Shown one piece after another: positions 4,749 through 28,835 of a DNA stretch of 32,000 nucleotides (position 1 is the first letter of the stretch; each line of letters begins with the position of its first letter). The stretch is from Eikenella corrodens (GTDB taxonomy: Bacteria > Pseudomonadota > Gammaproteobacteria > Burkholderiales > Neisseriaceae): NCBI RefSeq assembly GCF_003990355.1, contig NZ_CP034670.1, forward strand, positions 535,316 to 567,315. Direction: 5' to 3'. The position numbers and the translations under genes are program-made. The notes under the pieces are model-generated. The model was not told the DNA's origin and ran no database searches. It saw only the letters and a list, made by a program, of their open reading frames with translations.

Positions 4749-4797
4749 TAAGTTGGAGTTGGCTGTGAGCCAACCACGCTGTTGATTCCCGCAACAA

Positions 4798-4829
4798 AGG
4801 CTACCTGAAATTTCAGGTAGCCTTTTTTC
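4798..4829 (+). terminator. cysS terminator built from an inverted DUS pair
   Basis: Perfect 26-nt palindrome AGGCTACCTGAAATTTCAGGTAGCCT (4798-4823) runs into a T tract (4823-4828). Two further reverse DUS copies lie at 4827-4838 and 4877-4888. Confidence 0.8.
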
Positions 4830-4850
4830 AGGTAGCCTTTAGCGGGTATC

Positions 4851-4871
4851 GGATTGGAGAATCCAACCTAC
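4851..4871 (-). repeat. REP-like element (GTAG head plus short hairpin)
   Basis: The minus strand reads GTAG-GTT-GGATT-CTCC-AATCC. Related GTAG/GTGG-headed hairpins lie at 4758-4774 and in the 28669-28835 cluster. Confidence 0.4.
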
Positions 4872-4921
4872 GGTTTTTCAGGTAGCCCTTATATATTTCG
4901 CGCCGTCGGGGGCTAGTCCTG

Positions 4922-4932
4922 ACGGTATCTTT
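4922..4932 (+). repeat. Core repeat ACGGTATCTTT, copy A (putative attL)
   Basis: Context: ctagtcctgACGGTATCTTTGccagacagg. The chromosomal REP-like palindrome is to the left and lower-GC phage DNA to the right. Confidence 0.65.
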
Positions 4933-5006
4933 GCCAGACAGGCATTATCCACATCATAAGGCTGGACTAGCTCTCTTTGATCAAGCTAACTCAAAGGAGC
5001 TTTTTT

Positions 5007-5297
5007 ATGTCTTATCAATTACCTACCTATCCAAACATTACCGCCTATCTAGGCCAGCAGCCAGGCGATCTCTTTTGCGAGCTCGCCATCAAACTGAACA
5101 TCGAATCGGATCGCAGCTTCATCCTCTTTGAACACATAATCGAATCAGATCACCTTTCAGCCGACAGCGTGCGCCGGTTACTCGATACCTACGTCAGATT
5201 CGTTATTGACGCCATCGAATTACAAATTCCCTTTTTCCGCAACGTATCAGAAACCGAGTTCGAGCAAGTTGTTCCCGGATTCGAAATGGTGGCGTAA
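5007..5297 (+). CDS. Hypothetical phage protein (96 aa)
   Basis: ATG at 5007 follows the RBS AAAGGAG (4993-4999). It is the first ORF of the prophage. I recognise no family. Confidence 0.6.
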   Translation: MSYQLPTYPNITAYLGQQPGDLFCELAIKLNIESDRSFILFEHIIESDHLSADSVRRLLDTYVRFVIDAIELQIPFFRNVSETEFEQVVPGFEMVA

Positions 5298-5365
5298 ATG
5301 GCTAAGAAGCATAAAAACGCGTACCGGATTACTCCGAAATTCGTCATGCCGAAGAAGCGGCGAAG

Positions 5366-6688
5366 ATGAAGCCGGCTGCGGCGGCGGATGGCCGCCCTGC
5401 GGCCGCCGCCGGAGCGGCCGGCGACAATCGCCCCCCTAGGCTAACAGGGGGGGAGCAAAAAACCCAAAGACCATTAGCGGGGGAGCAAAAAATTGACTGG
5501 GCGGCCTATCAGGAAAGCGAATACTTTAAAACCTTCGTGACCAACCAGCGCGGCAAGCTTATAGAAATCCCATTACGCAAAGGCCGTGAAGATGGCGCCC
5601 TAATCGACTATCTGACTTTCACTTTCAGAAGGGAAAGCCTGATTGAATATTTCAAGAATCGCATCATCGGCGATAACGAATACATCGTGGTTGCCAGCGA
5701 AATGTTACAAAAAATCTTCGGCTACGGCCTGACCAAAAAAATGCCAGGCAAAGGCAAGTTTTTCTATCAAGGCTATTACCAAGTCGGCCCCGATAACGCC
5801 CCATACGGCACCCTGCATTACGGCGGCCAGCGCGATACCGTCTTAGTCGACTTGACCGGCACCGGTTGCCAAGCCGCAAAGCCCGGCTGGGAAGTCCGCC
5901 TTTATCAATTTTTGCAGGTAGCCATTAACGCCCGTATTACCCGTTGCGACGTTGCCCATGATTTTTTCAACGGCGAATACACCCCGGAACAAGGCATTTC
6001 CGATCATGCAAAAGGTTTGTATGACAACCATAACATTCGCCCAAAAATCGAACGCCGCGGCACGGCATGGATGAACGAGGACAACACCGGCAAAACCCTC
6101 TACATAGGACGCAAAGGCTCTTCCAAGCTGCTGCGAATTTATGAAAAAGGCAAAAAGTTTGGCGATGAAAACAGCCCGTGGGTTCGTTTCGAAGTCGAAT
6201 TCAGAAAACACGATTGCCTGATACCCATAGATATTTTGCTGTATCCCGGGCAATACCTGACCGGCGCATTTCCGATTGGCGAGCAACTCTTTACCACTCC
6301 CGCCAGCCGTATAGAAACCAAAACCCAAACTGTGAACCTTTCCTTTGACCAAAAAGAATTTCACGCAAAAAACCAGGTAGGCCGCTTCGTCCGTTTCCTA
6401 GTCGATATAGGGCTACCTGATAAAGAAATCGTCAAAAGATTGTGCGGCGAACAAAACAAATATCCGAAAGGTTTAGATCCTTCCGAATACGATTGCGAAG
6501 CCATCAAAACTTATTACCTGCATGACGAAGGCTTCAAACCATTGGATATAGACCAATTCAAAATGACCTTGGATAACTATCTTTTAGATGATGCTTATGA
6601 AGATAGATTGAGTAATGCTCATAGAGTCGCAGAAGCATTAGTAAATCAGCAAGACTACGAATACTTTTTCATTCAAGAAAGGAATTAA
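5366..6688 (+). CDS. Phage replication initiation protein (Rep_trans / RstA-like rolling-circle initiator)
   Basis: 440 aa. Its position and blocks (IDYLTFTF, GYYQVG...GTLHYGGQRDTVLVDLTGTGC, ITRCDVAHDF, WVRFEVEFR) resemble replication initiation factors of Nf/CTX-type filamentous phages. The N-terminal ~45 aa are low complexity. Confidence 0.75.
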   Translation: MKPAAAADGRPAAAAGAAGDNRPPRLTGGEQKTQRPLAGEQKIDWAAYQESEYFKTFVTNQRGKLIEIPLRKGREDGALIDYLTFTFRRESLIEYFKNRIIGDNEYIVVASEMLQKIFGYGLTKKMPGKGKFFYQGYYQVGPDNAPYGTLHYGGQRDTVLVDLTGTGCQAAKPGWEVRLYQFLQVAINARITRCDVAHDFFNGEYTPEQGISDHAKGLYDNHNIRPKIERRGTAWMNEDNTGKTLYIGRKGSSKLLRIYEKGKKFGDENSPWVRFEVEFRKHDCLIPIDILLYPGQYLTGAFPIGEQLFTTPASRIETKTQTVNLSFDQKEFHAKNQVGRFVRFLVDIGLPDKEIVKRLCGEQNKYPKGLDPSEYDCEAIKTYYLHDEGFKPLDIDQFKMTLDNYLLDDAYEDRLSNAHRVAEALVNQQDYEYFFIQERN

Positions 6689-6691
6689 CAA

Positions 6692-7012
6692 ATGGATTTC
6701 AGCAAATTACAACAGCCACTTTTCGAACGCGCCATCATCATGGGCGTAACCCGTTTTAAAGGCGAAATTGACGGCAGTGAAATTGATTCATGCACCGTTT
6801 TCCGTGCTGCTCCCTTCAATGATGCCAGCGGCAATGCAATGGGTCTTGGCCTGGCTAAAGTTCGTTTCGGCAGCAGCAGCAACTTTGACCGTTTTGCCGG
6901 TCTGACCTTCCCTTGTGAGCTGGAAATTCAGCTTGCCCGCGTAACCAACGGCAGCGGCAAAGAAACCGTCGTTATGAAAGACTTCCGACCGGTTGCCGAA
7001 GCCAAAAAATAG
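6692..7012 (+). CDS. Hypothetical phage protein in the position of the ssDNA-binding protein (gV analogue)
   Basis: 106 aa, RBS AAGGAA, directly downstream of rep. The function is inferred from gene order only. Confidence 0.6.
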   Translation: MDFSKLQQPLFERAIIMGVTRFKGEIDGSEIDSCTVFRAAPFNDASGNAMGLGLAKVRFGSSSNFDRFAGLTFPCELEIQLARVTNGSGKETVVMKDFRPVAEAKK

Positions 7013-7025
7013 AAAGGCGTAAGCC

Positions 7026-7241
7026 ATGGAAGAACGCTACATCGTGCAGGATTTGGACACCTTCGAATTCCTGTACCCGGAAAGAACGGGCGGAATAGGT
7101 TTAACGCCCTATCTCAAGTTGGCCGGGCATTTCTCAACCCGTGCCGATGCAATGGAAGCCGGAATAGACGAACTGGGTTCAGAGTTTGCCGTTTTCGCCT
7201 TCTTCGTACCGCAAGAATCGAACAAAGAAACCAAACAATAA
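7026..7241 (+). CDS. Hypothetical phage protein (71 aa)
   Basis: ORF with RBS AAAGG upstream, co-oriented within the phage operon. Confidence 0.55.
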   Translation: MEERYIVQDLDTFEFLYPERTGGIGLTPYLKLAGHFSTRADAMEAGIDELGSEFAVFAFFVPQESNKETKQ

Positions 7242-7319
7242 AGGGGCTTTCTGTCGTTGCCGGGCGGCCAGCGACATTAAACCTTTGAGAAGCCGCCCAC
7301 TAATTTTTTGGAAGCAGGA

Positions 7320-7463
7320 ATGTTAACCGGTATTGCACACATCATCGTTCCGCTGATTAGAGAGCAGGGGTTCATTGATATGCTGATTCAATATATGGGA
7401 GTCATATTGGGAGTAATTTTTCTTTTTTTTTGTTTTGAAGCATTAACGTTATCCGGTAAGTAA
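7320..7463 (+). CDS. Small hydrophobic phage protein (47 aa, not in ORF track)
   Basis: Hand translation: MLTGIAHIIVPLIREQGFIDMLIQYMGVILGVIFLFFCFEALTLSGK. It has one predicted TM segment. Its size and position before the coat gene resemble minor coat proteins. It contains a T9 tract (7423-7431). Confidence 0.4.
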   Translation: MLTGIAHIIVPLIREQGFIDMLIQYMGVILGVIFLFFCFEALTLSGK

Positions 7464-7508
7464 CTGAAAAATCTTTCACGATCCATTAATTTTTCGAGAG
7501 GAGTAAAA

Positions 7509-7658
7509 ATGCCATTTTATAGTTATGAAGAATTTGAAGAAGCCGTTGGAGAAATCGACGATGATGAAATGGTAGATGATTTCCATACTTGGGAAGAGCT
7601 TCAGGAAGAGTATCCGGATGGCGTATTTGACGAAGATGCCGAATTTATCCCGTTCTGA
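7509..7658 (+). CDS. Small highly acidic phage protein (49 aa, not in ORF track)
   Basis: RBS GAGAGGAG, then ATG at 7509: MPFYSYEEFEEAVGEIDDDEMVDDFHTWEELQEEYPDGVFDEDAEFIPF. Confidence 0.45.
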   Translation: MPFYSYEEFEEAVGEIDDDEMVDDFHTWEELQEEYPDGVFDEDAEFIPF

Positions 7659-7741
7659 TTGTTTTTAAGAAATTAACGCTATCCGGGCGGCGTTAATCAA
7701 GTAAATGCCCGATTTGAAAACTTGTTTTAAAGGAAAACATC

Positions 7742-7957
7742 ATGTTGAAACTGAAACATAAAGCTACGGCCTTGGCCGTTATGGCCTCCGCCTTCATCGC
7801 TACTAACGCTTCCGCAGGCGCGGTAGCTGACGCAGTAACCGCCGCTACCGGCGATTTCAAAACCGACTTGGCTTCAGTTGGCGGTATTGCCGTAGGTCTC
7901 GGCCTGATCGGTATCGCCTTCATCGCCGGTATCCGTTTGATTAAACGCGCGGTCTAA
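7742..7957 (+). CDS. Major coat protein (pVIII-like)
   Basis: 71 aa. Signal peptide MLKLKHKATALAVMASAFIATNASA, an acidic/amphipathic mature N-terminus, a hydrophobic core VGGIAVGLGLIGIAFIAGI and a basic tail RLIKRAV; this is the classic inovirus coat architecture. Confidence 0.85.
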   Translation: MLKLKHKATALAVMASAFIATNASAGAVADAVTAATGDFKTDLASVGGIAVGLGLIGIAFIAGIRLIKRAV

Positions 7958-7975
7958 AGAGTAAGGGCGGGCATC

Positions 7976-8281
7976 ATGGAAGGCTATTTGGCAGGAGGTC
8001 AATGCTTCGGCTCTGTGCAGGAAGCGTCCGATTACAAAATGTCTCAAGTGGTGCCTGCCATTACCGCAGATGGGAGCCTAAAAACTCCCGTCTATCAAAA
8101 CGGCAAGTGGTATTACGGTTCGCAGGAAGTCAAGCTGACTTTTCCGCCGTGCGATCCAGCCGCCTACGTTACAGATGGCGTCCTAATCGCTTCAGTCGCC
8201 ATATCAGTTGCCGCTTTCGCCTTCGTTATACGTTGGACAATCCGCGTATTCCAACAAGCCAATGAAAATCCCGAAAAATGA
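7976..8281 (+). CDS. Phage membrane protein (101 aa, C-terminal TM)
   Basis: The ORF follows the coat gene. TM segment VLIASVAISVAAFAFVI. Its stop overlaps the next start (ATGA at 8278-8281). Confidence 0.6.
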   Translation: MEGYLAGGQCFGSVQEASDYKMSQVVPAITADGSLKTPVYQNGKWYYGSQEVKLTFPPCDPAAYVTDGVLIASVAISVAAFAFVIRWTIRVFQQANENPEK

Positions 8282-9009
8282 GCGATCCGAACAAAATTCA
8301 GCCGCCTAAGAAGGGTATTGAAATGGTTAAAGGCGGGGGCTATCCCGCTAAAGCCGTTTCTACCAGCGTTCAGCAGCATACCGCGCCCATTCAAACCGAT
8401 ATGTATTTGATCGGAGCCGAAGCGGTTAAATGGGCATTGATTGGGCTGGCTTTTTATGCTGCTTTCCGTTTGTTTAGAAGCGCCATCATGGATGCCTTGG
8501 GCTTTAGAAAAAGCCGGAAGGAAGCCAAAGAAGCGGAAGCGTTGAATGAAAACGGATTGGAAAACTTGGATCAAGATCCAATGAGTGAAGAAGAACAAGA
8601 AACATATATTCCAAGTAGTGACCCATTAACTGAATTTGAAGGTTTGGACGGAGAAGAACCGCCGGACAATATGCCGGACAGTCCCGAAGAAGATCCGGGT
8701 TTGCAATACGATTTAGAAAATGAGCGGTGGGAAATTAATGCCAGTGCCGCTTTGCAAGAAGGTCATGAATATGGTTCGGATGAGTTTTATAGCCGTATTG
8801 CGGAATTAGAGGAAATGGATAGGTTGGTTGAAGAGTATGAACCTTCTGAATCTGACGATGAGCCGCCGGAATCCGATATGTCGTTAGATGATGAAGCTTT
8901 GGAAATAGCGGTTGCGGAATCAGATGACTGGGAAAAAGAGGCTAACTCCGGTGCGTTGGATGAGCGTGTGGAACGAATAAAACAGGAATTGCAACAGGAA
9001 AATCAATAA
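8278..9009 (+). CDS. Membrane-anchored, extremely acidic phage protein (243 aa)
   Basis: One TM segment (WALIGLAFYAAFRLF) followed by a ~170-aa D/E-rich tail. It is translationally coupled on both sides. Confidence 0.65.
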   Translation: MSDPNKIQPPKKGIEMVKGGGYPAKAVSTSVQQHTAPIQTDMYLIGAEAVKWALIGLAFYAAFRLFRSAIMDALGFRKSRKEAKEAEALNENGLENLDQDPMSEEEQETYIPSSDPLTEFEGLDGEEPPDNMPDSPEEDPGLQYDLENERWEINASAALQEGHEYGSDEFYSRIAELEEMDRLVEEYEPSESDDEPPESDMSLDDEALEIAVAESDDWEKEANSGALDERVERIKQELQQENQ

Positions 9010-9077
9010 TGCCACCTGAAATCTACTTTCTGGCCGGTTTTGCCGTAGTTATTCCAGCAGTCATCATGTTTTTATAA
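9009..9077 (+). CDS. Tiny hydrophobic peptide (22 aa, not in ORF track); possible minor coat protein
   Basis: Its ATG overlaps the preceding stop (TAATG). Translation: MPPEIYFLAGFAVVIPAVIMFL. Its size and hydrophobicity are like pVII/pIX-type proteins. Confidence 0.35.
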   Translation: MPPEIYFLAGFAVVIPAVIMFL

Positions 9078-9114
9078 AACTGCGGCCAATGTTTAAACTC
9101 AAAGGTAAACAACA

Positions 9115-10242
9115 ATGATTTCACTGATTACGGGTCTGCCCGGCATGGGCAAAACCTCCCTAATGGTCTATATGCTGCTCAATCGCAAAGATTTGCAGAA
9201 TAGGCCGGTTTATGTTGACGGCATTCCGGAGCTACAAGTCAAACATGAAGAAGTACCCGAAGGCGAAAGCATGGAAACATGGCATAAATGGGCGCCGGAT
9301 GGCTCAATCCTCGTTATTGACGAAGCCCAAAGGGTCTTTCGTCCACGCCCCGCGGGGGCGAAAGTACCCGACTATGTTCAGGCTCTTGAAACGCATCGCC
9401 ATAAGGGCATTGATATCTTTGTGCTCACGCAACATCCGCGGTTGATTGACGTCCACCTTAGAAGTTTGATTGGTGAGCACCGCAACATCAGCCGCACCAT
9501 GCTCGGCCTGCGCCGTGTCTCTTACTGGCAGCGTTGCGCCAATCCCGAAGCCAGGGCAGACGTGGCCGAAGCCAAAAATAGCATATTCATGCCGAAAAAA
9601 AGCGTGTTCGGTATGTACAAATCCGCCAGCGAACACACCAAGCTTAAAGGCTCGGTCAGCGCGTGGATTTACACCATCCCCGTTGTGATCGTCATAGTCG
9701 GCTATCTTATGTCTTACGTTTGGGCAAGCTATCAACGCAAAATCCATCCTGAACAAGCCCAGCCGCAGCAGGTACAACCTTATCAACAGCAGCCGCAAAA
9801 CTACCAGCAGCAGGCAGGCGGCCAGTATCCAGCAGCAGGCAGCTATGCCGAACAAACGGCCACCGTACAACAGCCGCCCGATAACAACCTGAAGCCTGAA
9901 GATTGGCAACCTGCCATAGACGGCCAGCCGTGGACGGCTCCTATTTACAACGGCCATAACCGCAATATCCAAACCATGCCCTACCCTGTTGCCTGCGTGC
10001 AAACTGATACAAGCTGCACCTGTTACACCGAACAGGCCACGCCTTTGGAACTGCCTGCCAAGCAATGTCAAAACTACGTGAAGAACGGCATATACAACCC
10101 CTATAAGGCGCGGCAGGAAACCGCCGACAACGTACCGCAGGGCAGTTACGGCGGCGGCAGCGGGGCAAGTGTGCTGACTTTGGACAGTCCGGCTAAATCC
10201 ACCATGGCACATGCGGAAACTAGGGGGACTATGGGGCAGTAA
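9115..10242 (+). CDS. Zot / pI-family phage assembly NTPase
   Basis: 375 aa. N-terminal Walker A (ITGLPGMGKTS), Walker B-like ILVIDEAQ, a central TM (IYTIPVVIVIVGYLMSYVW), a Q/P-rich linker and a Cys-containing C-terminal domain. Confidence 0.85.
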   Translation: MISLITGLPGMGKTSLMVYMLLNRKDLQNRPVYVDGIPELQVKHEEVPEGESMETWHKWAPDGSILVIDEAQRVFRPRPAGAKVPDYVQALETHRHKGIDIFVLTQHPRLIDVHLRSLIGEHRNISRTMLGLRRVSYWQRCANPEARADVAEAKNSIFMPKKSVFGMYKSASEHTKLKGSVSAWIYTIPVVIVIVGYLMSYVWASYQRKIHPEQAQPQQVQPYQQQPQNYQQQAGGQYPAAGSYAEQTATVQQPPDNNLKPEDWQPAIDGQPWTAPIYNGHNRNIQTMPYPVACVQTDTSCTCYTEQATPLELPAKQCQNYVKNGIYNPYKARQETADNVPQGSYGGGSGASVLTLDSPAKSTMAHAETRGTMGQ

Positions 10243-10253
10243 GGCTGCCTGAA
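10242..10253 (+). repeat. DUS variant AGGCTGCCTGAA (non-Eikenella dialect)
   Basis: It overlaps the last base of the zot-like stop codon (10240-10242) and differs from the host 12-mer at one position (A to G). Confidence 0.6.
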
Positions 10254-10268
10254 ATTTAAGGATGAATT

Positions 10269-10529
10269 ATGGCTATCTACATCATATCTGATGACCTACC
10301 CAAACCCGACAAATGGCATGGCGTGCATTATCTTAATTGTCTGCATCAACTGAACCATAACTCTGAAATTGAGTATCAGATGTTTTGCAACGTATTGAAA
10401 AAAATGTCTGACGGCAGGTTGAAAATCGAAGTGTTCGGCTATCGTTACTTTATTCGGAAGGACTCGATAAACAGGAGCTACATACGCTATGTCGATGCAG
10501 ACAGGGTAACTTGCCGCAGGCGGGGCTAG
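10269..10529 (+). CDS. Hypothetical phage protein (86 aa)
   Basis: RBS AAGGAT, AT-rich ORF. I recognise no family. Confidence 0.5.
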   Translation: MAIYIISDDLPKPDKWHGVHYLNCLHQLNHNSEIEYQMFCNVLKKMSDGRLKIEVFGYRYFIRKDSINRSYIRYVDADRVTCRRRG

Positions 10530-10619
10530 ATTAGATGCCTGACGGAATTGACTGCTTGCAGTCGATTTCGGCAGGTATCCGCCAAGCGATAGCGCGGCAG
10601 GGGTGCTACAAACGGCATG

Positions 10620-10640
10620 AGGCTACCTGAAAAGGTAGCC
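10620..10640 (+). repeat. Host-type DUS AGGCTACCTGAA with partial inverted copy (GGCTACC/GGTAGCC hairpin)
   Basis: This is the only exact Eikenella-type DUS core inside the prophage. It lies in the 175-nt non-coding gap 10530-10704. Confidence 0.75.
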
Positions 10641-10704
10641 AAACCTGCCCGGATTGGTTAAGCTGGCCTTTCGTTTATTTTATGAATGAAAGGTTGTTGC
10701 AAAC

Positions 10705-10860
10705 ATGATTTGGGCTTTATTGATTTTATTAGCTCTTTCTTATATTGCCAGCGGTAAGAAAATGACAAGCGGTTTTGGTGATAAGCTTGCTTGGGTCTTG
10801 TTGGTTCTGTTCTTGGCGGCTTTAGCCTATGGTTTTTATATGGCTAATTATGCGGAATAA
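10705..10860 (+). CDS. Small two-TM membrane protein (51 aa, not in ORF track)
   Basis: Hand translation: MIWALLILLALSYIASGKKMTSGFGDKLAWVLLVLFLAALAYGFYMANYAE. Confidence 0.4.
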   Translation: MIWALLILLALSYIASGKKMTSGFGDKLAWVLLVLFLAALAYGFYMANYAE

Positions 10861-10871
10861 GGGGGCTTTAA

Positions 10872-11144
10872 ATGGATTGGAATCAATGTTTTTTGATGCA
10901 GCCTGATGGCGGTAGTTATGCAACGAATTTTAATAATTATCTGACTTTTGTTGTGAATGGGTATAACAGTTTGGTACCGGATGGACAGCCAGATTTTTTT
11001 AAACCGGTATATTTGGGCGTAATGATGAGTCCGGCGCAGTTGGCTGTATTGCGCGCTAACCGGCATTTATTTGATGAGAGTTTTAATGATGCTTTGGAAC
11101 GGTTACAAAAGAGCTATGACAGGCTTCAAGTGGAGGTGGGTTAG
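10872..11144 (+). CDS. Hypothetical phage protein (90 aa)
   Basis: RBS AAGGGGG. It overlaps the start of the next ORF. Confidence 0.5.
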   Translation: MDWNQCFLMQPDGGSYATNFNNYLTFVVNGYNSLVPDGQPDFFKPVYLGVMMSPAQLAVLRANRHLFDESFNDALERLQKSYDRLQVEVG

Positions 11145-11430
11145 TTTATTTTCTCTGCTGAGTGTAGCGGTGCAGGTATGGGCAGATGTACCAGCTTATC
11201 CGCCGCAGAATGTACCTTCAATCCAGCGTTTGGCTGCTGCGCCGAATGGGCAATTAATGACAGGCTATAGCTCTGTTAATGGTAATTGGTCTTATGATAT
11301 GAATTCTGGTGTAGCTAAGGTTGATAGGTTTCGGAATGTCAATCGCGGTGCAGGTGGCCTAGTCGGCACCAAAACCAACCCCGTCAACCTGACCGACAAC
11401 TACGGCAACGTCGCCCGCGGCCAGATCTAA
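11071..11430 (+). CDS. Signal-peptide-bearing N-terminal fragment of the adsorption (pIII/TspB-like) protein
   Basis: The sequence ...MTGFKWRWVSLFSLLSVAVQVWA-DVP looks like a Sec signal. The ORF ends at TAA 11428-11430, in the same frame as the 11443 ORF. Confidence 0.55.
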   Translation: MMRVLMMLWNGYKRAMTGFKWRWVSLFSLLSVAVQVWADVPAYPPQNVPSIQRLAAAPNGQLMTGYSSVNGNWSYDMNSGVAKVDRFRNVNRGAGGLVGTKTNPVNLTDNYGNVARGQI

Positions 11431-11442
11431 ACACAAACCGCC

Positions 11443-12723
11443 ATGCCTGCTAACTCTAGAATAGCTCAAGGTCTCGGCTCTATTTATGTCCTGCAAATTG
11501 CCAACCAACATCTAACCAACCTCAAAGCCCAAGGCGTGTCTGAAATGTACAGCCGCGGCTTCGAAGAAGGAGACTGGGGGCAGGTTGCCAACGCCACCGC
11601 CAAGCTGTTTGACTGGACAGGCTTCGGCAGTAACGTAGCAGACAGCCTTTACGGCAATGCAGATATTCAGCAGTTAAATCAACAATTGCAACAGCAGGCT
11701 TTGGCACAGGCACAACAGCAGTTTCAAAACTATCAGGCAGTACAGCAACCACAGCGTATAGACCCTAATCAATATGCACAGTATAACGTCGTTAAGTTTT
11801 TTCAAGACAACCCTGTTAATGTGGATAGAAGCAGTTATGAAATAGTCGTTAAAACAACCCGTAAGGCAACTTATGAAGATGGTTGGTATGACATGTACGA
11901 CCATGGGCAAACATTTACGCACAATATAAATAGTACAAATGACACTTTTACCTACACCTTCCCGCCGGGCAATAGATTCGTGATGTTCGTCGTTCGTCCG
12001 GCCACCGCCCAAGACATCCGAAATTACAACCTATCCAATGCTCCCCAGTTGTCCGAAATAGTGCCCAAAGAAGCGGAAGTAGCCCGCCTGCTCGAACAGA
12101 TCCTGAACGACAACAACCGTAATCACACAGAATTAATTAATGCCCTTTGGGGCGCCGGTGTGATTGGCCCCGGCAATACTCAAAGCATGGTAACCGGCAC
12201 ACCCGGCGACAACACATTTTTAACCGAACCCTATACCCCGGCCGGCTCCAATCAAGCCCAACAAACCCAGTTTGTAGTTAATAAAGACGGCACCGTAACG
12301 CAAACCATCGTCCAGCGGCCTGATTTGGCCGCCAACACGAGCCAAGCACCGACCAGGGCAGAAGTCGGGCAAAGTCAGCAGCAGGCGCAGGACACGCGAC
12401 AAGCGAAAGAAAACAGTACTGCAGAAAAGCCCGATATTTGCGCGCAAAACCCGAATAGCTTGATGTGTGCGCCCATGGGCAATATCGATTATCAGGACCT
12501 AGTATTGCCACAGCAAAACATCAATATCGCCCTATCCCCGCTGCATATCTTTAATACAGATGCAGCCTGTCCCGCTCCTACTACGTTTAGCATAGCGGGT
12601 ACACAGCAAAGAATGAGTTATGAACCAATGTGTGATACTGCCCGCAAAGCACGCCCTTTTATTATTATGATGGCGATGACCGCCGCATTTTTGATGGTAT
12701 TCAGTGCCCTTAATCGCCGTTAG
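11443..12723 (+). CDS. TspB-like adsorption protein, C-terminal part (no signal peptide, no RBS of its own)
   Basis: 426 aa with a Q-rich linker. The C-terminal Cys-containing block (DICAQNPNSLMCAPMG...ACPAPTTF...SYEPMCDTARKARPF) plus a terminal TM anchor (IIMMAMTAAFLMVFSAL) matches what I recall of Neisseria phage TspB C-terminal domains. Confidence 0.7.
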   Translation: MPANSRIAQGLGSIYVLQIANQHLTNLKAQGVSEMYSRGFEEGDWGQVANATAKLFDWTGFGSNVADSLYGNADIQQLNQQLQQQALAQAQQQFQNYQAVQQPQRIDPNQYAQYNVVKFFQDNPVNVDRSSYEIVVKTTRKATYEDGWYDMYDHGQTFTHNINSTNDTFTYTFPPGNRFVMFVVRPATAQDIRNYNLSNAPQLSEIVPKEAEVARLLEQILNDNNRNHTELINALWGAGVIGPGNTQSMVTGTPGDNTFLTEPYTPAGSNQAQQTQFVVNKDGTVTQTIVQRPDLAANTSQAPTRAEVGQSQQQAQDTRQAKENSTAEKPDICAQNPNSLMCAPMGNIDYQDLVLPQQNINIALSPLHIFNTDAACPAPTTFSIAGTQQRMSYEPMCDTARKARPFIIMMAMTAAFLMVFSALNRR

Positions 12724-12733
12724 GCAGCCTGAA
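12722..12733 (+). repeat. DUS variant AGGCAGCCTGAA (non-Eikenella dialect)
   Basis: It overlaps the stop codon of the TspB-like gene and differs from the host 12-mer at two positions. Confidence 0.6.
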
Positions 12734-12752
12734 AAACTTGAAAGGAAGGAAT

Positions 12753-13040
12753 ATGGGCAAAACCCTAGCCGGTATGTTTACCGCAGTTTTGACTACCCTA
12801 GCAGGCAAAATCATCATGGCATTAGGCATTTCCGCTATTTCTTACACCGGCCTAAACCTGCTGCAAACCCAAATGATTAACGCCCTAACCGGCCAGCTCT
12901 CTGCTGCCCCGCTCTCCGCCGTCCAGATTATGTATATAGGCGGTCTAGGGGTGGCCCTAAACTGGATACTGGGTGCAGTAGCCTTTCTCGTTTCCTTCAA
13001 TTCGGTAGCCAAGCTCGGCAGCATCTTTCGACAGAAGTAA
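12753..13040 (+). CDS. Small polytopic membrane protein, pVI-like minor coat candidate
   Basis: A strong RBS GAAAGGAAGG precedes the ATG at 12753. 95 aa and mostly hydrophobic; it immediately follows the adsorption gene, as pVI does in other inoviruses. Confidence 0.65.
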   Translation: MGKTLAGMFTAVLTTLAGKIIMALGISAISYTGLNLLQTQMINALTGQLSAAPLSAVQIMYIGGLGVALNWILGAVAFLVSFNSVAKLGSIFRQK

Positions 13041-13088
13041 CACAGGATAGAATAGACAATCTAACTGGTTCAAAACTTGCTTAAAGCA

Positions 13089-13158
13089 TAAAGCCGCATC
13101 ACGCCTGCATTTAGCCTTGTCATTTAGACAATGGGAAAGATTGGCGGATGTGGCTTTA
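13089..13158 (+). ncRNA. Candidate bridge/seek-RNA target-binding module for the downstream IS110-family recombinase (hypothesis)
   Basis: A 16-bp stem (13089-13105 with 13143-13158; one G-U, one bulged A) closes an 11+11-nt internal loop capped by the hairpin TTGTC-ATTTA-GACAA. AATGGGAAAGAT (13130-13141) is the exact reverse complement of ATCTTTCCCATT at the right junction (14279-14290). It lies in an ORF-free 176-nt gap. No expression evidence is available. Confidence 0.3.
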
Positions 13159-13176
13159 CTTATGTCGAAAATCAAT

Positions 13177-13187
13177 ACGGTATCTTT
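13177..13187 (+). repeat. Core repeat ACGGTATCTTT, copy B (internal, 29 nt upstream of the recombinase ATG)
   Basis: Context: aatcaatACGGTATCTTTGtccacagaca. It is either a third recombination site or a donor-matching guide segment of the putative RNA. Confidence 0.55.
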
Positions 13188-13216
13188 GTCCACAGACACA
13201 ATATAAGGATTGCAAC

Positions 13217-14179
13217 ATGCAAAAAATCGCACTTGGATTAGATATATCCAAATTGACTATAGACGCATATTTTAATGGTCAAAAAGATTTTATCCGCGTT
13301 ATGAACAATAAATCCGGTATAGAAAAATTGATTGAGCGCATAAAAAACTATCAGCAACAAAGCAAGGAGATTCATGCTTGCTGCGAATACACCGGCGTTT
13401 ATTACTTACCGCTGGCCAGCTCATTGCATGATTCAGGAATCAAAATCAGCGTAATCAACCCGCTTTCTATCAAGCTATACGGGGAATACAGATTAAGACG
13501 AACAAAAACCGATAAACAGGATGCGAAACTAATTGCCGATTATTGCGAAAAAGAAAATCCGCCATTATGGAAACCGCTATCAGAAAAACGTAATACTTTA
13601 AAAGTTTTAAATAGACGTATCGAACAACTAAACGTATTACTGAACATGGAAAGCAATAGAAAAGACGTATCAGATTCGGTAATAAAGTCAGGTATAGGAA
13701 GAATAATTAACGCAATAAAAGAAGAAATAGAAAGCTGTAAAACAGCCATTCAAAACCTGATAGATTCTGACGAAGAATTAAGCCATAACCAAAATCTATT
13801 GCAAACAATCAGCGGGGTAGGAAAAACTACAGCCGCATGGCTTTTGTCCGTACTGGTTGATATAGATAAATTCGAGAACTCAAAGAAGTTAATCAGCTAT
13901 TTAGGACTATCGCCCGTAATCAAAGATTCAGGCACAAGTGTTAGACAAGCCAAAATATCCAAGATGGGCGATAAGAAAGTAAGGAAAGCGCTTTACTATC
14001 CGGCGCGGGCAGTTTGTCTAAGATCCAAACTGTGGCGGCCTTGGTTTGAACAAAAGATAAAACAGGGCAAGCACCCAAAGCAAATCTATGTCCTGATGAT
14101 GTGCAAAATCGTCAAATACGCCTATGCCGTGATTAAAACAGGTCAGCCGTTTGACGAGATGCGGCACAAACAGGCGTAA
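13217..14179 (+). CDS. IS110-family DEDD recombinase/transposase (Piv/Irg-like)
   Basis: Start taken at MQKIALGLDISK (ATG 13217, RBS AAGGA). DEDD-type N-domain (GLDISK, CCEYTGVYY, KTDKQDA) and C-terminal Transposase_20-like region (ISGVGKTTAAWLL...LGLSPVIKDSGTS). About 320 aa and AT-rich. Confidence 0.88.
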   Translation: MQKIALGLDISKLTIDAYFNGQKDFIRVMNNKSGIEKLIERIKNYQQQSKEIHACCEYTGVYYLPLASSLHDSGIKISVINPLSIKLYGEYRLRRTKTDKQDAKLIADYCEKENPPLWKPLSEKRNTLKVLNRRIEQLNVLLNMESNRKDVSDSVIKSGIGRIINAIKEEIESCKTAIQNLIDSDEELSHNQNLLQTISGVGKTTAAWLLSVLVDIDKFENSKKLISYLGLSPVIKDSGTSVRQAKISKMGDKKVRKALYYPARAVCLRSKLWRPWFEQKIKQGKHPKQIYVLMMCKIVKYAYAVIKTGQPFDEMRHKQA

Positions 14180-14273
14180 AACAGCAGTTTAAACTGTTGC
14201 AAAAAAGCGGCAGCCGATGGCTATCGCTGCATAACTGTTGCTTGCGTTTTTAAAAAGTTCTTGACTTTCGATT

Positions 14274-14284
14274 ACGGTATCTTT
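14274..14284 (+). repeat. Core repeat ACGGTATCTTT, copy C (putative attR)
   Basis: Context: ctttcgattACGGTATCTTTcccattcatgc. GC-rich host DNA and the lrgB-like stop (14303-14305) follow. Confidence 0.65.
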
Positions 14285-14302
14285 CCCATTCATGCGGCAC
14301 GC

Positions 14303-14998
14303 TCAAACGCCCAACAGCGGCACGATAATCGGGGCGAGGAAGGAGGTGAGAATGCCGTTGAAAATCAGGCCAAGGGTGGCGTAGGCGGCGAAGTGGCCGC
14401 TGATTTCCAGGCTGGCGGCAATGCCGATGGCGTGCGAGGCCGTGCCCTGCGCGATGGAGTGCGAGATGGGATTGCGGATGTGGCTGTGGTGCAGAATCCA
14501 AAAGCCGATAAATTGGCCGGTGAGCCCGGCAATCAGCACGGCGGCCACCGAAACGGCGGGGATGCCGCCCAGCACGTGGGTGATTTCCAGCGCAATCGGC
14601 ATGGTAACCGATTTGGCGGCGAGCGACTGGCTCACGTCGTGGCTGGCGCCCAGCCAGTGTGCAAACAGCACGCCGCTCACAATGCCCACCACGCTGCCCA
14701 CCAGCTGCGAGGCGGCAATCGGCAGCCATTGGCTGCGGATACGCGGCCACTGCTGATACATGGGGATGGCCAGGCACACAATGGCCGGTTGCAGCCAAAA
14801 GCCGACCATGCGGCCGGTTTGCATGAAATCGTCGTAGCGGATGCCGAAGAGTTTCAGGTAGCCGATGACCAAAACCGTGCTCACCATCAGCGGGTTGGCC
14901 AGCGGGCTGCCGCTGCGCAGGCGCAAAAACAGGCTGAAGCGGTAAACGGCGAGCATCATCAGAATCAGCACAACGGGATTGGTGGCGATTTCCCTCAT
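14303..14998 (-). CDS. LrgB/CidB (YohK) family membrane protein
   Basis: Start taken at MREIATNPVV (14998). It overlaps the upstream stop in an ATGA arrangement. About 231 aa, polytopic, with LrgB-like blocks (AKSVTMPIALEI, GTASHAIG). Confidence 0.85.
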   Translation of the reverse strand: MREIATNPVVLILMMLAVYRFSLFLRLRSGSPLANPLMVSTVLVIGYLKLFGIRYDDFMQTGRMVGFWLQPAIVCLAIPMYQQWPRIRSQWLPIAASQLVGSVVGIVSGVLFAHWLGASHDVSQSLAAKSVTMPIALEITHVLGGIPAVSVAAVLIAGLTGQFIGFWILHHSHIRNPISHSIAQGTASHAIGIAASLEISGHFAAYATLGLIFNGILTSFLAPIIVPLLGV

Positions 14999-20620: not shown

Positions 20621-21478
20621 TAGACCTCTTGCGAAAGTATCCTGAAGATTTACAATTCCCAAATGAAATACGAAAACCTCATCCAAAGAAGCGATAGCGA
20701 ATTCAAACGGCTCACAGGTGTAACGCCCGTCCTTTTTCACGAAATGCTGCAAGTCACCACAGAAGCAGAAAGCCGGAAGGTCAAGTCAGGCAGGCCGCAT
20801 ACGCTCGGTTTGGCAGACCAACTGCTGCTTACCCTAAGCTATCTGCGCCATTACCATACCCAACTCGAATTGGCCGCCATCTACGGCCTTTCCGAAAGCA
20901 ATGTCTGCCGCACCATCCGTAAAACCGAGGACGCCCTCATCCGTTGCAAACGCTTCTCCCTGCCAAAGCACAAGAATCCGGGCGACCAAACGGTCATCAT
21001 TGACGTTACCGAAAGCCCGATTGAACGTCCCAAAAAAACAGCGGCAGTATTACAGCGGCAAGAAAAGGCGGCACACGGTTAAAATCCGGGTCATATACGG
21101 CAGGGAAACGGAAAAAATCATCAGCATCCGGACGGGGATGGGTGCCCGGCATGACATGCGTTTAGCCAAGAGGCACCTTGCAGAGCTTTATCCCTACAAA
21201 ATAGTCATTGCGGATAAGGGTTATCAAGGATTGGCCAAAACCGGATTACAGACCCCGAAAAAGAAATCCAAACGTCATCCGCCGGACAAACAGGATAAAG
21301 AGGCGAACAGGCGGTTAGGCAAACTCAGAACCGTCATCGAGCACATCAACAGGAAACTGAAGATATTCAAAATATTGTCGCTGCCTTACCGCAACAGGCG
21401 GAAACGGTTCGGGTTAAGGGCAAATCTGATTGCAGGACTGGTTAATGCGATGGGATGAATATTTTCGCAAGAGGTCTA
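20621..21478 (+). mobile_element. IS5-like (DDE_Tnp_4 / HTH_Tnp_4 type) insertion sequence, ~0.86 kb
   Basis: 20-bp inverted repeats TAGACCTCTTGCGAAAGTAT (20621-20640) and ATATTTTCGCAAGAGGTCTA (21459-21478), with one mismatch. TACTA occurs at both boundaries (20618-22, 21477-81), overlapping the terminal TA. Confidence 0.8.
20663..21458 (+). pseudogene. IS5-like transposase split into two frames at an A7 tract
   Basis: The frame-A ORF (20663-21082) encodes the HTH region (GRPHTLGLADQLLLTLSYLRHYHTQLELAAIYGLSESNVCRTI...IIDVTESPIERPKK). The frame-B ORF (to 21458) continues with QRQYYSGKKRRHTVK...IADKGYQG...IEHINRKLK. They join only by a +1 shift at AAAAAAA (21032-21038). Confidence 0.6.
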
Positions 21479-27338: not shown

Positions 27339-27758
27339 ATAAAGTTTCAGGCAGTCGTTTCAGGTAGCCTGAAAAGCAGCTGCCCGATGGCAGATAAAGT
27401 TTTGCCGCAATCCTTATTCCCAACAGCCCCAAAGTCCCCTCTCCCCATGGGAGAGGGTTAGGGGGAGGGAAACCGTTCAAGTTTCGGCAAACGCTGCTAT
27501 TGGATTGAGACTTTGCCCTCCCACACGGGGAAGGAGGTGGATTGCGGGGAAATTGAGAATACGTGCGTACTGCACACACCCTGCATACAGGCTACAACTT
27601 GTTATGTTTACTTATTGAGAAAAATGGGGATGACGTATGGAAAAAGAAATTTCTTTTTTGTTATCAAGTTTATCTGATAACGAAATACATCAAATTTGCG
27701 ATCTCCCTAGGAATGCTGTCCTTCTTCTCTTAAATGAAAAAAGTTAGATGATTTTATA

Positions 27759-28538
27759 TTGGAGAGATTACTGAGAGCATTAAAAAGTTGGCATTCCGCC
27801 AAGAATAGGGCTGGTAATAAATTAAAGATCAAACTATTACCAGATAAAAAACAATATAAAAAAATGGAACTAATGTTCTCTACTTTAGAAAATATTTCCT
27901 CTCTTCTTAAATCATCCGAGTCTGAAATTATTTCATATGAAGGAGCTAAACTTTACCTATTGAGTAAGTTTAAAGATATAGTATCAATACTTGATAGAGA
28001 AAATAAAGAGAACTTTATACATCAGATAAATCATTTCATCCCATATTGGCTTATATATAGAAAAGCTCCAACTAATTTTTTACTAAATAGAAAAATTCTT
28101 ATTGAAAAAGAAAAATTCTTTTTTTATATTGATGGACTAAATCCGATCCTAATGGAAAGCCTAAACTTTATACAACAGGAAAAATTAAGAAAATGTAAAG
28201 CTGTAAACTTAATCAAGCTGGAAAATAATTTTTTCATTGAACTTGATGAAGTAAACATGATTTCCAATCAAGCCAAAATGGCAAATACAAAAATTGCAAA
28301 TGGAGGACATTCAAATGAAAAACAAGAGTATGCCAAAGAAAAATATGGTAATAATAAAATAAATAATAGAACTTATAATAAATTATCAAATTCAGAAAGC
28401 TATCAATTTCTTAATAAAATGAAAGAGTATATAAACTTTATAGAAAAGGTAAATCGAGCATTTGTACGCCCAGACTTTGATCGATTAGAAGGCTGGCATA
28501 CCCAGGGAGGTTTACCCACCTTAGGAAAACGTAGATAA
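27759..28538 (+). CDS. Orphan AT-rich ORF (259 aa); probably the frameshifted body of a longer XRE-HTH protein starting at 27637
   Basis: The ORF has a TTG start in the track and very low GC, and I recognise no family. An upstream 36-aa ORF (27637-27747) joins it through a -1 shift in an A6 tract (27737-27742) to read ...LSDNEIHQICDLPRNAVLLLLNEKKLDDFILERLLRALK, an XRE-type HTH pattern. Confidence 0.5.
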   Translation: MERLLRALKSWHSAKNRAGNKLKIKLLPDKKQYKKMELMFSTLENISSLLKSSESEIISYEGAKLYLLSKFKDIVSILDRENKENFIHQINHFIPYWLIYRKAPTNFLLNRKILIEKEKFFFYIDGLNPILMESLNFIQQEKLRKCKAVNLIKLENNFFIELDEVNMISNQAKMANTKIANGGHSNEKQEYAKEKYGNNKINNRTYNKLSNSESYQFLNKMKEYINFIEKVNRAFVRPDFDRLEGWHTQGGLPTLGKRR

Positions 28539-28668
28539 ATCACTAAAATTTCATCAATACTATTCAATTAAGAGATTCATCCATACCCAAACATACCGGC
28601 TAAAAATCCATTTTTATCATCGAAATAGCCCTCATCGCTATTGGACAAGCTTACGAAATTGACTACTC

Positions 28669-28835
28669 CGACGCACAGACTGCGTAGGTTGGCTTAGCCG
28701 CAGGCATAGCCAACCAATAAATCTTAGACAACCTTGGGTTACGGTTTGCACCCTAACCCAAGCTATGGCTACTCAAAAACGAAACTAAAAACCCGGCAAC
28801 CCGAAACCCGCCGTAGTCAGGCATTTATGCCCGAC
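28669..28835 (+). repeat. Cluster of REP-like hairpins
   Basis: Four elements: ACGCA-cagac-TGCGT; GTAG-GTTGGCT...AGCCAACC (28684-28715); CTTGGGTTA...TAACCCAAG (28733-28762); GTAG-TCAGGCA-ttta-TGCCCGAC (28813-28835). Confidence 0.5.

Follow-up and report, generated by a model that had tools for sequence, protein, structure and literature searches.

This analysis concerns a 32,000-nucleotide stretch of the Eikenella corrodens genome (the window; all coordinates are window positions, and L-numbers denote the loci compared with it) and, within it, an insert in which a run of filamentous phage genes ends with a gene for an IS110-family transposase. Every gene between 5007 and 14179 lies on the + strand, the transposase gene being the last, and the G+C content is 0.469 in the insert and 0.58-0.60 in its flanks. 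The 11-mer ACGGTATCTTT occurs exactly at 4922-4932 (copy A), 13177-13187 (copy B) and 14274-14284 (copy C), always on the + strand, with 8255 bp from A to B and 1097 bp from B to C, and a twelfth base, G, is common to A and B; these counts, first given in a first-pass annotation of the same DNA, were confirmed on recounting. That annotation had described the insert as a filamentous phage joined to an IS110-family recombinase, with which the gene content agrees, and had held that the three copies split it into a phage module and an IS module. We find no support for the split. The insert appears instead to be one prophage whose recombinase would be guided by an RNA, and we consider here what each of the three copies represents in such an element.

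Gene content and boundaries of the prophage

The genes of the insert form the set by which an inovirus is recognised (Rep, major coat protein, Zot, a TspB-type and a pVI-like protein, encoded on one strand within 7-10 kb; Table 1), with a pivNM/irg-type transposase at the right end and CT flanking both ends. While the phage-IS relationship had been thought unusual at first, in kind it is the known Nf/pivNM arrangement. The recombinase has a DEDD RuvC-like N-terminal domain (PF01548, DEDD_Tnp_IS110, E 2.5e-19) and a C-terminal Tnp domain with the catalytic serine (PF02371, Transposase_20, E 7.6e-22), and its residues D9, E57, D99, D102 and S238 align with D11, E60, D102, D105 and S241 of IS621. 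The reference copy is the E. coli locus L059, which we take to be IS621 and whose protein numbering agrees with the published catalytic residues. Identity to the meningococcal Nf recombinase is 33-36%. Among 44 genomic loci with relatives of the recombinase, nearly all that have enough flank carry the same phage genes upstream, and the close relatives with enough flank are all phage-linked except one (L002, discussed below). Saliva viromes hold free circular inovirus genomes (OR148979 and OR148983, annotated Inovirus) with a recombinase 51% identical to that of the window.

Table 1. Features of the prophage and its junctions, in window coordinates
Feature	Position	Strand	Basis
Left target half: uptake-sequence copy TTCAGGTAGCC and left CT core (4888-4889), attL crossover	4877-4889	+	DNA uptake sequence (DUS) variant at 4877-4888; phage-free homology
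Phage left end: right donor arm TATATAT..., containing the -10 box TATATT (4892-4897)	4890-4910	+	joined-end promoter
A module, donor-loop-like: stem 4911-4919/4964-4972; left-donor-guide-like ACGGTATCT 4922-4930 (copy A 4922-4932); hairpin 4932-4944; right-donor-guide-like TCATAAG 4954-4960, then GC	4911-4972	+	constrained fold; donor-loop model
Hairpin GCTCTCTTTGA...TCAAAGGAGC followed by T6, possible terminator or attenuator past the A module (weak)	4970-5006	+	fold
Filamentous phage genes, all on the + strand	5007-13040	+	Pfam and PHROGs matches; synteny with L003, L015, OR148979 and OR148983
Rep_trans initiator (rolling-circle)	5366-6688	+	Pfam/PHROGs
phrog_4994	6692-7012	+	Pfam/PHROGs
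Inovirus major coat protein	7742-7957	+	Pfam/PHROGs
Zot assembly ATPase	9115-10242	+	Pfam/PHROGs
TspB-like adsorption protein	11443-12723	+	Pfam/PHROGs
DUF2523 minor coat protein	12738-13040	+	Pfam/PHROGs
Putative target-binding loop: outer stem 13090-13105/13143-13157; left target guide ATTTAGCCT 13109-13117; hairpin 13118-13130; right target guide and handshake AATGGGAAAGAT 13130-13141	13090-13157	+	fold z = -2.8
Putative donor-binding loop: left donor guide ACGGTATCT 13177-13185 (copy B 13177-13187); hairpin 13187-13198; right donor guide ATATAAG 13201-13207; handshake G 13208; closing stem CAAT/ATTG	13173-13212	+	layout as in IS621 copy L059
IS110-family bridge recombinase, 320 amino acids	13217-14179	+	PF01548, PF02371
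Right end: -35 box TTGACT 14261-14266; left donor arm ACGGTAT 14274-14280; right CT core 14281-14282	14180-14282	+	phage-free homology
Right target arm TTCCCATT, chromosomal, 13 bp from the lrgB stop codon (14303)	14283-14290	+	8/8 match to right target guide

The boundaries can be read directly from loci without the phage. On the right side, nine phage-free E. corrodens loci (L048-L056) read, in window orientation, ...aaaggctacctgaaactttcaggtagc-CT-ttgccattcc...lrgB; phage-free strains read ...tttcaggtagc-CT-ttgccattcc..., and the homology of the window restarts exactly at 14281, the C of the CT in copy C. The right end is conserved in L003, L004, L180, L181 and L002, with divergence directly past the CT. 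The LrgB and CysS proteins encoded beside the prophage correspond exactly to NCBI entries of E. corrodens, which identifies the host, and the contigs with an identical LrgB all end at the lrgB stop codon. Further exact-protein look-ups, for the recombinase (two start codons), Zot and CysS of the window, matched no record. Copy C is the true right junction, made up of the left donor arm ACGGTAT, the CT core and the target bases TT. On the left side, phage-free relatives of the cysS locus read ...acggtttttcaggcatc-CT-agggctacctgaaag..., and homology with the phage-free cysS-side loci L232/L233 extends to ...tttttcagg..c-CT; the window diverges past the CT at 4888-4889 into TATATATTTCGCG. Related prophages (L003, L180, L006, L009, L034 and L010) have the corresponding left junction, DUS-CT-T(A/G)TATATT.

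This left crossover lies 33 bp upstream of copy A. The intervening 33 bp, which include the first 32 bases of the phage, are conserved in L003 and L180 at other chromosomal sites and have a homologue in the circular relatives. Since the empty sites, the circular relatives and the conserved sequence to the left of A all agree, the prophage spans 4890-14282 and is flanked by CT, with a CT core at each junction (4888-4889 and 14281-14282) and a single CT in the empty site; IS110 insertion duplicates the CT core only. No tRNA was found at the locus, and a tRNA or dif-type attachment site was rejected on this ground. Copy A had been proposed as the left boundary on the understanding that the claim would fail if empty sites showed other boundaries, and it does fail, since these place the crossover at the CT at 4888-4889. 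Likewise, the empty site that had been predicted, ...CTAGTCCTGACGGTATCTTTCCC..., does not occur in the phage-free strains, which show ...TTTCAGGTAGC-CT-TTGCCATTCC... instead.

The candidate bridge RNA and its targets

The 176-bp spacer upstream of the recombinase gene (13041-13216) appears to encode a bridge RNA with two loops (13090-13212). We propose that this RNA would guide the recombinase: its target loop would pair with the chromosomal site, consisting of an uptake-sequence copy, the CT core and TTCCCATT, while its donor loop would pair with the joined ends of the phage, ACGGTAT-CT-TATATAT. Copy C would be the physical right junction, copy B the left donor guide, and copy A the same guide in a second donor-loop-like module. 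Indeed, copy B, ACGGTATCT continuing into TTGTCCAC, spells the left donor arm and the core, which physically are copy C, and for this reason B is best read as the left donor guide of the putative bridge RNA. The agreement of bases 10-11 (TT) looks incidental, as the loop scaffold and the DNA past the terminator are both T-rich. The right donor guide ATATAAG is the reverse complement of CTTATAT, that is, of the CT core and the left end of the phage. On the target side, the reverse complement ATCTTTCCCATT of AATGGGAAAGAT equals window positions 14279-14290 in 12/12 bases, namely the last two phage bases, the CT and eight chromosomal bases. The donor sequence is ACGGTATCTTATAT and the target sequence CAGGTAGCCTTTCCCATT. 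In the IS621 copy L059, the position of the right target guide is taken by TGCGTAGAT, the reverse complement of its own right junction AT-CT-ACGC, and the position of the donor loop by ACAGTATCA, a hairpin and TTGCAAG-G.

The guides are thus complementary to the target and to the joined ends, and they also covary with them. Across 14 phages, the reverse complement of the right target guide matches the cognate right flank over a mean of 5.0 contiguous bases past the CT and non-cognate flanks over 1.57 (permutation p about 1e-5). Between the window and L003 a one-base difference in the guide (GGGAAAG versus GGAAAAG) is matched in the flank (TTCCCATT versus TTTCCATT), and L180 and L181 are two further cognate insertions. 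In architecture, too, the spacer follows the bridge RNA of IS621. In an alignment of 25 sequences including IS621, the stem of the target loop has compensatory changes in 13/15 pairs, 75% of its cells are paired as against 31-50% when the partners are slid, and its covariation, 0.398 as against 0.195 after shuffling, was reached in 0/500 shuffles. The donor-loop hairpin has compensatory changes in 2/3 pairs, and a donor-loop sequence model matches at B (13168-13218, E 1e-7). The RNA is predicted to be produced. The meningococcal Nf loci in IMG/VR carry the same two loops, and a bridge RNA appears, judging from their sequences, to be general to Nf-type phages; our literature search found no paper describing a bridge RNA in Nf phages.

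The left target guide points to an unexpectedly common sequence. Allowing one mismatch, AGGCTACCTGAA occurs 39 times in the window, where 0.03 occurrences are expected. We take it to be the Eikenella dialect of the DUS; the names of the dialects are confirmed in the literature. The reverse complement of AGGCTACCTGAA is TTCAGGTAGC-CT, which places the crossover core at the end of the 12-mer. The left target guide varies with the dialect of the host, with TAGC-CT in Eikenella, CTGC-CT in Kingella, CAGC-CT in Alysiella and GCCG-CT beside a Vitreoscilla repeat, and a Neisseria sp. prophage is located at TTCAGACGGC-CT. The left target arm is an uptake-sequence copy in the window, in Kingella, in Alysiella and in other relatives, and not the dRS3 repeat. 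We found no description of uptake-sequence targeting by such phages in the literature. The phage genome itself holds an exact AGGCTACCTGAA at 10620-10631 and a one-mismatch copy at 10242-10253, and the same copy is present in L015; a phage-borne uptake sequence could favour uptake by transformation or act as a self-target.

The joined ends and their promoter are directly visible in the free circular relatives, which carry the recombinase, the bridge RNA and the A module in one circle. They join their ends as TTGACA-cagaat-ACAGTAT-CT-TGTATATT, followed by the A module. The junction promoter, present in L057 and L058, reads TTGACA-17-TATATT in L058 and matches the sigma-70 consensus at 11/12 positions. 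When the ends of the window prophage are joined in silico they give TTGACT-18-TATATT (10/12), and the predicted junction of the circle is ...TTGACTTTCGATTACGGTAT-CT-TATATATTTCGCGCC..., which may also be written ACGGTAT-CT-TATATATTTCGCG. Such a promoter is predicted to exist only in the circular form, and the phage of the window may still circularise. The junction of C-left with A- or B-right (TTCGATTACGGTATCTTTG) had 0 exact matches in viral contigs. A metagenome scan with TTBRATTACGGTATCT gave chance matches alone among the matches listed, the pattern being too short.

We assign a probability of roughly 0.85, as one figure for the identity of the element and for the roles of B and C together, to the reading that the 9,393 bp at 4890-14282 are an Nf/MDA-type filamentous prophage of E. 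corrodens with an IS621-like IS110 recombinase, in which B would be the left donor guide and C the right junction. Several observations weigh against it. A distance of 8.2 kb separates the left end from the bridge RNA, whereas in IS621 the bridge RNA directly follows the junction promoter; the sequence just ahead of the target loop showed no promoter-like site, and Rfam gave no matching family at either threshold. The closing stem of the donor loop at B has only 4 bp, the relatives L006 and L010 match their own flanks for only 2 bases past the core, and the left target guide is an imperfect fit to the left flank (TTTAGCCT versus GGTAGCCCT; one C is extra). Exact scans of viral contigs for TACGGTATCTTATATATT, the predicted circle junction of this very phage, gave 0 matches, and an RNA role of module A cannot be told from a role in single-stranded phage DNA. 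Finally, the flanks derive from different chromosomal sites, the left one (4750-4889) from the cysS terminator and the right one (14283-14305) from the lrgB terminator; in phage-free strains an acyl-CoA dehydrogenase gene lies next to lrgB and an HNH gene next to cysS, and the natural right arm at the cysS terminator is AGGGCTAC.

With such mismatched flanks, the window prophage is not a simple one-step insertion. The chimerism implies that the prophage or its recombinase was used in an inversion or translocation, and a reciprocal junction is predicted on the acyl-CoA dehydrogenase side, ...TTTCAGGTAGC-CT joined to AGGGCTACCTGAAAG. Judging from its right target guide, which fits the arm at lrgB, the phage probably targeted the lrgB site, and the left flank was probably exchanged later, via recombination of two prophage copies or a guide-directed half-site event.

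Other loci show irregular junctions as well. In L048, L049, L051-L053 and L055, about 670 bp of unrelated sequence abut the same ttttcaggtagc-CT site beyond the lrgB uptake sequence, and L050, L054 and L056 have a simple inverted uptake-sequence pair there; breaks seem to recur at this site. An Eikenella sp. prophage (L019:11057-11125) has, at its right end, two ACAGTAT-CT sites 46 bp apart, the first followed by the donor-like TGTAAAA and the second by a flank matching the right target guide, which may be a remnant of tandem or repeated insertion. In Eikenella longinqua (L001), a whole contig of 1,711 bp holds nothing but the C-terminus of TspB, DUF2523, the bridge RNA and the recombinase, which suggests a collapsed multi-copy repeat and several copies of the phage in that genome.

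Copy A and competing explanations

Copy A lies within a 62-bp module in which a 9-bp stem closes a loop containing ACGGTATCT, a hairpin and TCATAAG-GC. The module sits 22 bp inside the left end, directly downstream of the joined-end promoter; a consensus terminator scan did not call the hairpin that follows it (4970-5006). The donor-loop model mentioned above was built from B-type loops only and holds no base pairs, its matches resting on sequence alone. It matches the region of A at 4919-4965 with an E of 0.021, which bears out the early observation that the right flanks of A and B are related; rather than two copies of an element left end, as was then supposed, they are two donor-binding-loop-like modules. 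Over 447 kb the model matches only B loops and A modules, once each in IS621 and meningococcal Nf, nowhere in phage-free loci, and twice in each phage of the clade except L009, L010, L034, L182 and L184, in which A is seen by eye below the threshold. Homologous modules occupy the same place in L003, L180, L006, L009, L010, L034, L012-14, L057/58, L182/184 and L188, and so occur in phages of Eikenella, Kingella, Alysiella, Vitreoscilla and others as well as in circular genomes. RNAalifold gave no usable structure on a MAFFT alignment of the A modules, which aligned poorly, and constrained single folds and the sequence model were used. The guides of A and B were compared by eye, automatic guide extraction having picked hairpin segments at several loci; the dinucleotide before AAG (AT, AC, GC or GT) is identical in A and B in 8/8 lineages, and it complements the right donor arm if wobble is allowed.

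These features argue that A is a paralogue of the donor loop, placed where IS621 starts its bridge RNA. Whether it also acts as an RNA donor loop we put at about even odds. Our preferred guess is that A is transcribed from the circle as a donor-loop RNA and that this RNA has a part in donor-side recombination or in regulation. A more detailed scenario is tentative and less likely than not: A might be a natural stand-alone donor-loop RNA, transcribed from the circle-only promoter, that lends the recombinase an activity other than integration, be it donor-donor recombination of joined-end sites (by which multimers of the replicative form and tandem prophages are resolved or built) or a recombinase-dependent control of read-through into the replication genes, in a phage whose left target guide is moreover tuned to the uptake dialect of its host. 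If so, the bridge RNA would be a naturally split one, the uptake sequences, in their thousands, would be available as attachment sites, and the dialect could limit the host range. We found neither a second donor-loop module nor a natural stand-alone donor loop described in the literature.

It is conceivable, though rather unlikely in our view, that A is a structure of single-stranded DNA, such as a complementary-strand origin or a packaging signal, or else a decayed duplicate of the donor loop that serves at most as a DNA pseudo-site or decoy. A does lie in the main non-coding region beside rep, where inoviruses place their origins and packaging hairpins, and the flanking GCCCC/GGGGC hairpins also occur in relatives without the loop (L019, L020, L026, L027, L041 and L214). 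Moreover, conservation of a structure cannot separate RNA from + strand DNA, and guide-encoding DNA has been used as a pseudo-site in L212 and L002. However, the guide-like arms keep matching the donor arms across lineages with 40-50% recombinase identity, changing alongside the guides of B, and A directly follows the circle-only promoter, as the bridge RNA does in IS621. A lone donor loop, furthermore, is active in an engineered system: with IS622, split loops work and, of the two, the donor loop suffices for donor-donor recombination (Perry et al., bioRxiv 10.1101/2025.05.14.653916). That system differs from the phage in being engineered and tested in human cells, and it is the only precedent for a lone donor loop that we found; natural excision uses both loops.

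Around the A modules of four relatives (L006:2529-2660, L009:2805-2935, L010:1410-1545 and L034:174-300) lie four G/C-rich segments, GCCCC, GGGGC, GCCCC and GGGGC-TTT, which can pair as a hairpin and a terminator, or of which the middle two can close the donor-like loop. This arrangement resembles an attenuator, though less clearly so in Eikenella. An inverted partial left end with an A module (L006:450-600, - strand), some 2 kb upstream of the prophage in Alysiella, looks like the remnant of another insertion or inversion.

An improbable alternative holds that the insert consists of tandem units, the phage from A to B and an autonomous minimal IS110 element from B to C, which move separately, the phage borrowing an IS-type donor site. 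It draws on a solo unit in Eikenella glucosivorans (L002), whose recombinase gene is 85% identical, and on the modular circles documented for ISPpu9 and the half-match partial circles of expanded IS110 loci. In L002 (9960-11090), ...TTTTCAGGTAGC-CT-GTCTACAGACACAATATAAGG, the latter being B-right, precedes the recombinase, ACGGTAT-CT-GTCCCATGG follows it, and no phage genes are found within 10 kb. Yet a unit from B to C would begin within the donor loop, midway along the bridge RNA, and would lack the target loop (13090-13157). L002 lacks the left donor guide in addition, the donor-loop model finds no match there, and its breakpoint is 2 bases off the CT of B: a chromosomal uptake sequence, TTTTCAGGTAGC-CT, is joined to the donor-loop hairpin and the right donor guide. 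We read L002, from this arrangement, as a defective product of recombination at guide-encoding DNA. It is the one solo copy recognised among 44 genome and 52 viral loci, several short contigs of which could not be judged, and, as stated above, the other close relatives are phage-linked. Nor is A a phage end, and the circular phage genomes hold the recombinase together with the bridge RNA and the A module. The TCGA...AT motif to the left of B and C, which had suggested a shared right end, is not kept in L003 (B-left atgcccaaaatcaat, C-left ctttgaatt) and is treated as chance.

A comparable event has occurred in the Neisseria Nf prophage L212, where (1190-1290) GTAGTAT-CT, the right end, continues into TATATATTCAGAATCTGTGTTCTTTGATACTAC, which is donor-loop DNA in inverted orientation. 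This rearrangement at guide-encoding DNA resembles the half-match events reported for other IS110 loci and the partial inversions reported for Nf. An inversion was reportedly among the observations of Kawai in 2005, and L212 matches it.

The remaining explanations concern the repeat itself. In the first-pass annotation's other model, A to C was a single unit with B as part of a guide RNA. Its idea of B stood, as did the joint movement of phage and recombinase; its left boundary at A did not. Taken literally, with the 11-mer as a direct repeat made by insertion and an empty site CTAGTCCTG-ACGGTATCTTT-CCCATTC, this model is very improbable: the direct repeats do enclose nearly all of the low-G+C insert, but ACGGTAT and CTAGTCCTG are wholly missing from the empty sites, the sequence between the left CT and A is conserved phage DNA, and an IS110 insertion would duplicate nothing beyond its core. 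That the copies reflect chance or low complexity, for which only the shortness of the word speaks, can practically be dismissed, since with one further one-mismatch match (- strand, 6959) the count of 4, against an expected 0.43, was reached in 0/100 shuffles, and since the independent Eikenella prophages L003 and L180 have the word at the same three places, where more distant phages have its counterpart ACAGTATC. Nor is the 11-mer a common genomic word: some 110 kb of E. corrodens DNA free of the phage (L045-L056) do not contain it. The repeat is real, its origin is functional, and a known mechanism accounts for it.

Elsewhere in the window, two other transposase open reading frames are present, one of ISXO2/IS1595 type (470-1150) and one of DDE_Tnp_4/IS5 type (20901-21458). 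Positions 1-352 and 1192-1939 correspond to sequence that lies right of the prophage in L003, the neighbourhood being rearranged between strains. A low-G+C island (27400-28800; 0.30 versus about 0.62) between tamB and a Kdo transferase gene contains an open reading frame of 259 amino acids (27759-28538) with no Pfam match.

Relation to known systems and significance

The closest mechanistic relative is IS621 of the IS110 family (Durrant 2024, PMC11208160; Hiraizumi 2024, PMC11208158). Both systems combine a DEDD and serine recombinase with a two-loop RNA directly upstream of its gene, in which the left guide has the sense of the top strand and the right guide is the reverse complement, and both have an AGAU handshake end and a CT core; a promoter at the joined ends, known for IS621, is predicted for the window phage. 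The terminal AU at the right target guide is the published handshake guide (PMC11208160, PMC11208158). Even the donors are almost identical, ACAGTAT-CT-TGTAT in IS621 and the Kingella phages as compared with ACGGTAT-CT-TATAT in the window. However, IS621 measures about 1.3 kb and the window element 9.4 kb, and the phage genome separates the left end of the latter from its bridge RNA, such that the compactness of the family (about 1.2-1.5 kb, with the bridge RNA directly past the promoter) is lost. Where IS621, with its one donor loop, begins its bridge RNA, the window has the second donor-loop-like module, and the phage targets an uptake sequence, IS621 a REP element.

By gene content the element belongs with the Nf1-4 and MDA phages, which have the same set of Rep, coat, Zot and TspB with a recombinase at the right end and CT at the ends. 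The junction ...atCT-tatatatt is seen in L212 and L214, and pseudo-site rearrangements upstream of the recombinase gene are common to both groups. The junction motif atCT-tatat is also said to figure in Kawai's work of 2005. Duplicated CT flanks and a pivNM/irg transposase are known for the Nf/MDA phages (Kawai 2005 and Bille 2005, cited in PMC4471427; PMC2212043), and the dRS3 repeat is reported as the meningococcal Nf target. The window phage differs from these in host genus and in target, and in the meningococcal Nf loci examined the donor loop is single and the A module missing.

Expanded IS110 loci (Hu et al., bioRxiv 10.64898/2026.08.14.744561) and the circles of ISPpu9 (PMC12288879) resemble the window element in being far above the canonical size and in having internal sequences that match the donor arms and offer alternative boundaries; L002 and L212 look like such partial-boundary products. 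Those loci are described as mostly plasmid-derived and as growing by progressive additions, whereas the cargo in the window is a coherent self-replicating phage that appears to co-evolve with the recombinase and whose internal matches would be functional guide segments. CTX phage and other inoviruses that integrate at dif also achieve lysogeny by site-specific recombination at a short host repeat, but there the host XerCD recognises the site by protein, with no guide RNA. The kind of element is thus known from the Nf phages of 2005 and the bridge RNAs of 2024; the second donor-loop module and the uptake-sequence targets are what we did not find described.

For annotation, the locus illustrates that internal copies of an element end may be guide genes, and that ends are misplaced, here by 33 bp, when such copies are taken as boundaries. 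It offers a natural bridge-recombinase system that moves a self-replicating cargo of 9 kb, and the conserved second donor loop is a lead on how the reactions may be regulated or diversified, which is relevant to the engineering of split bridge RNAs. Since a programmable bridge RNA is recognisable in these phages, the insertion site becomes predictable from the sequence of each prophage. The reading also gives a mechanistic account of the 20-year-old observation that filamentous phages of the Neisseriaceae integrate via an IS110-type transposase, and target guides that track the uptake dialect would tie phage lysogeny to the signature repeat of the transformation machinery.

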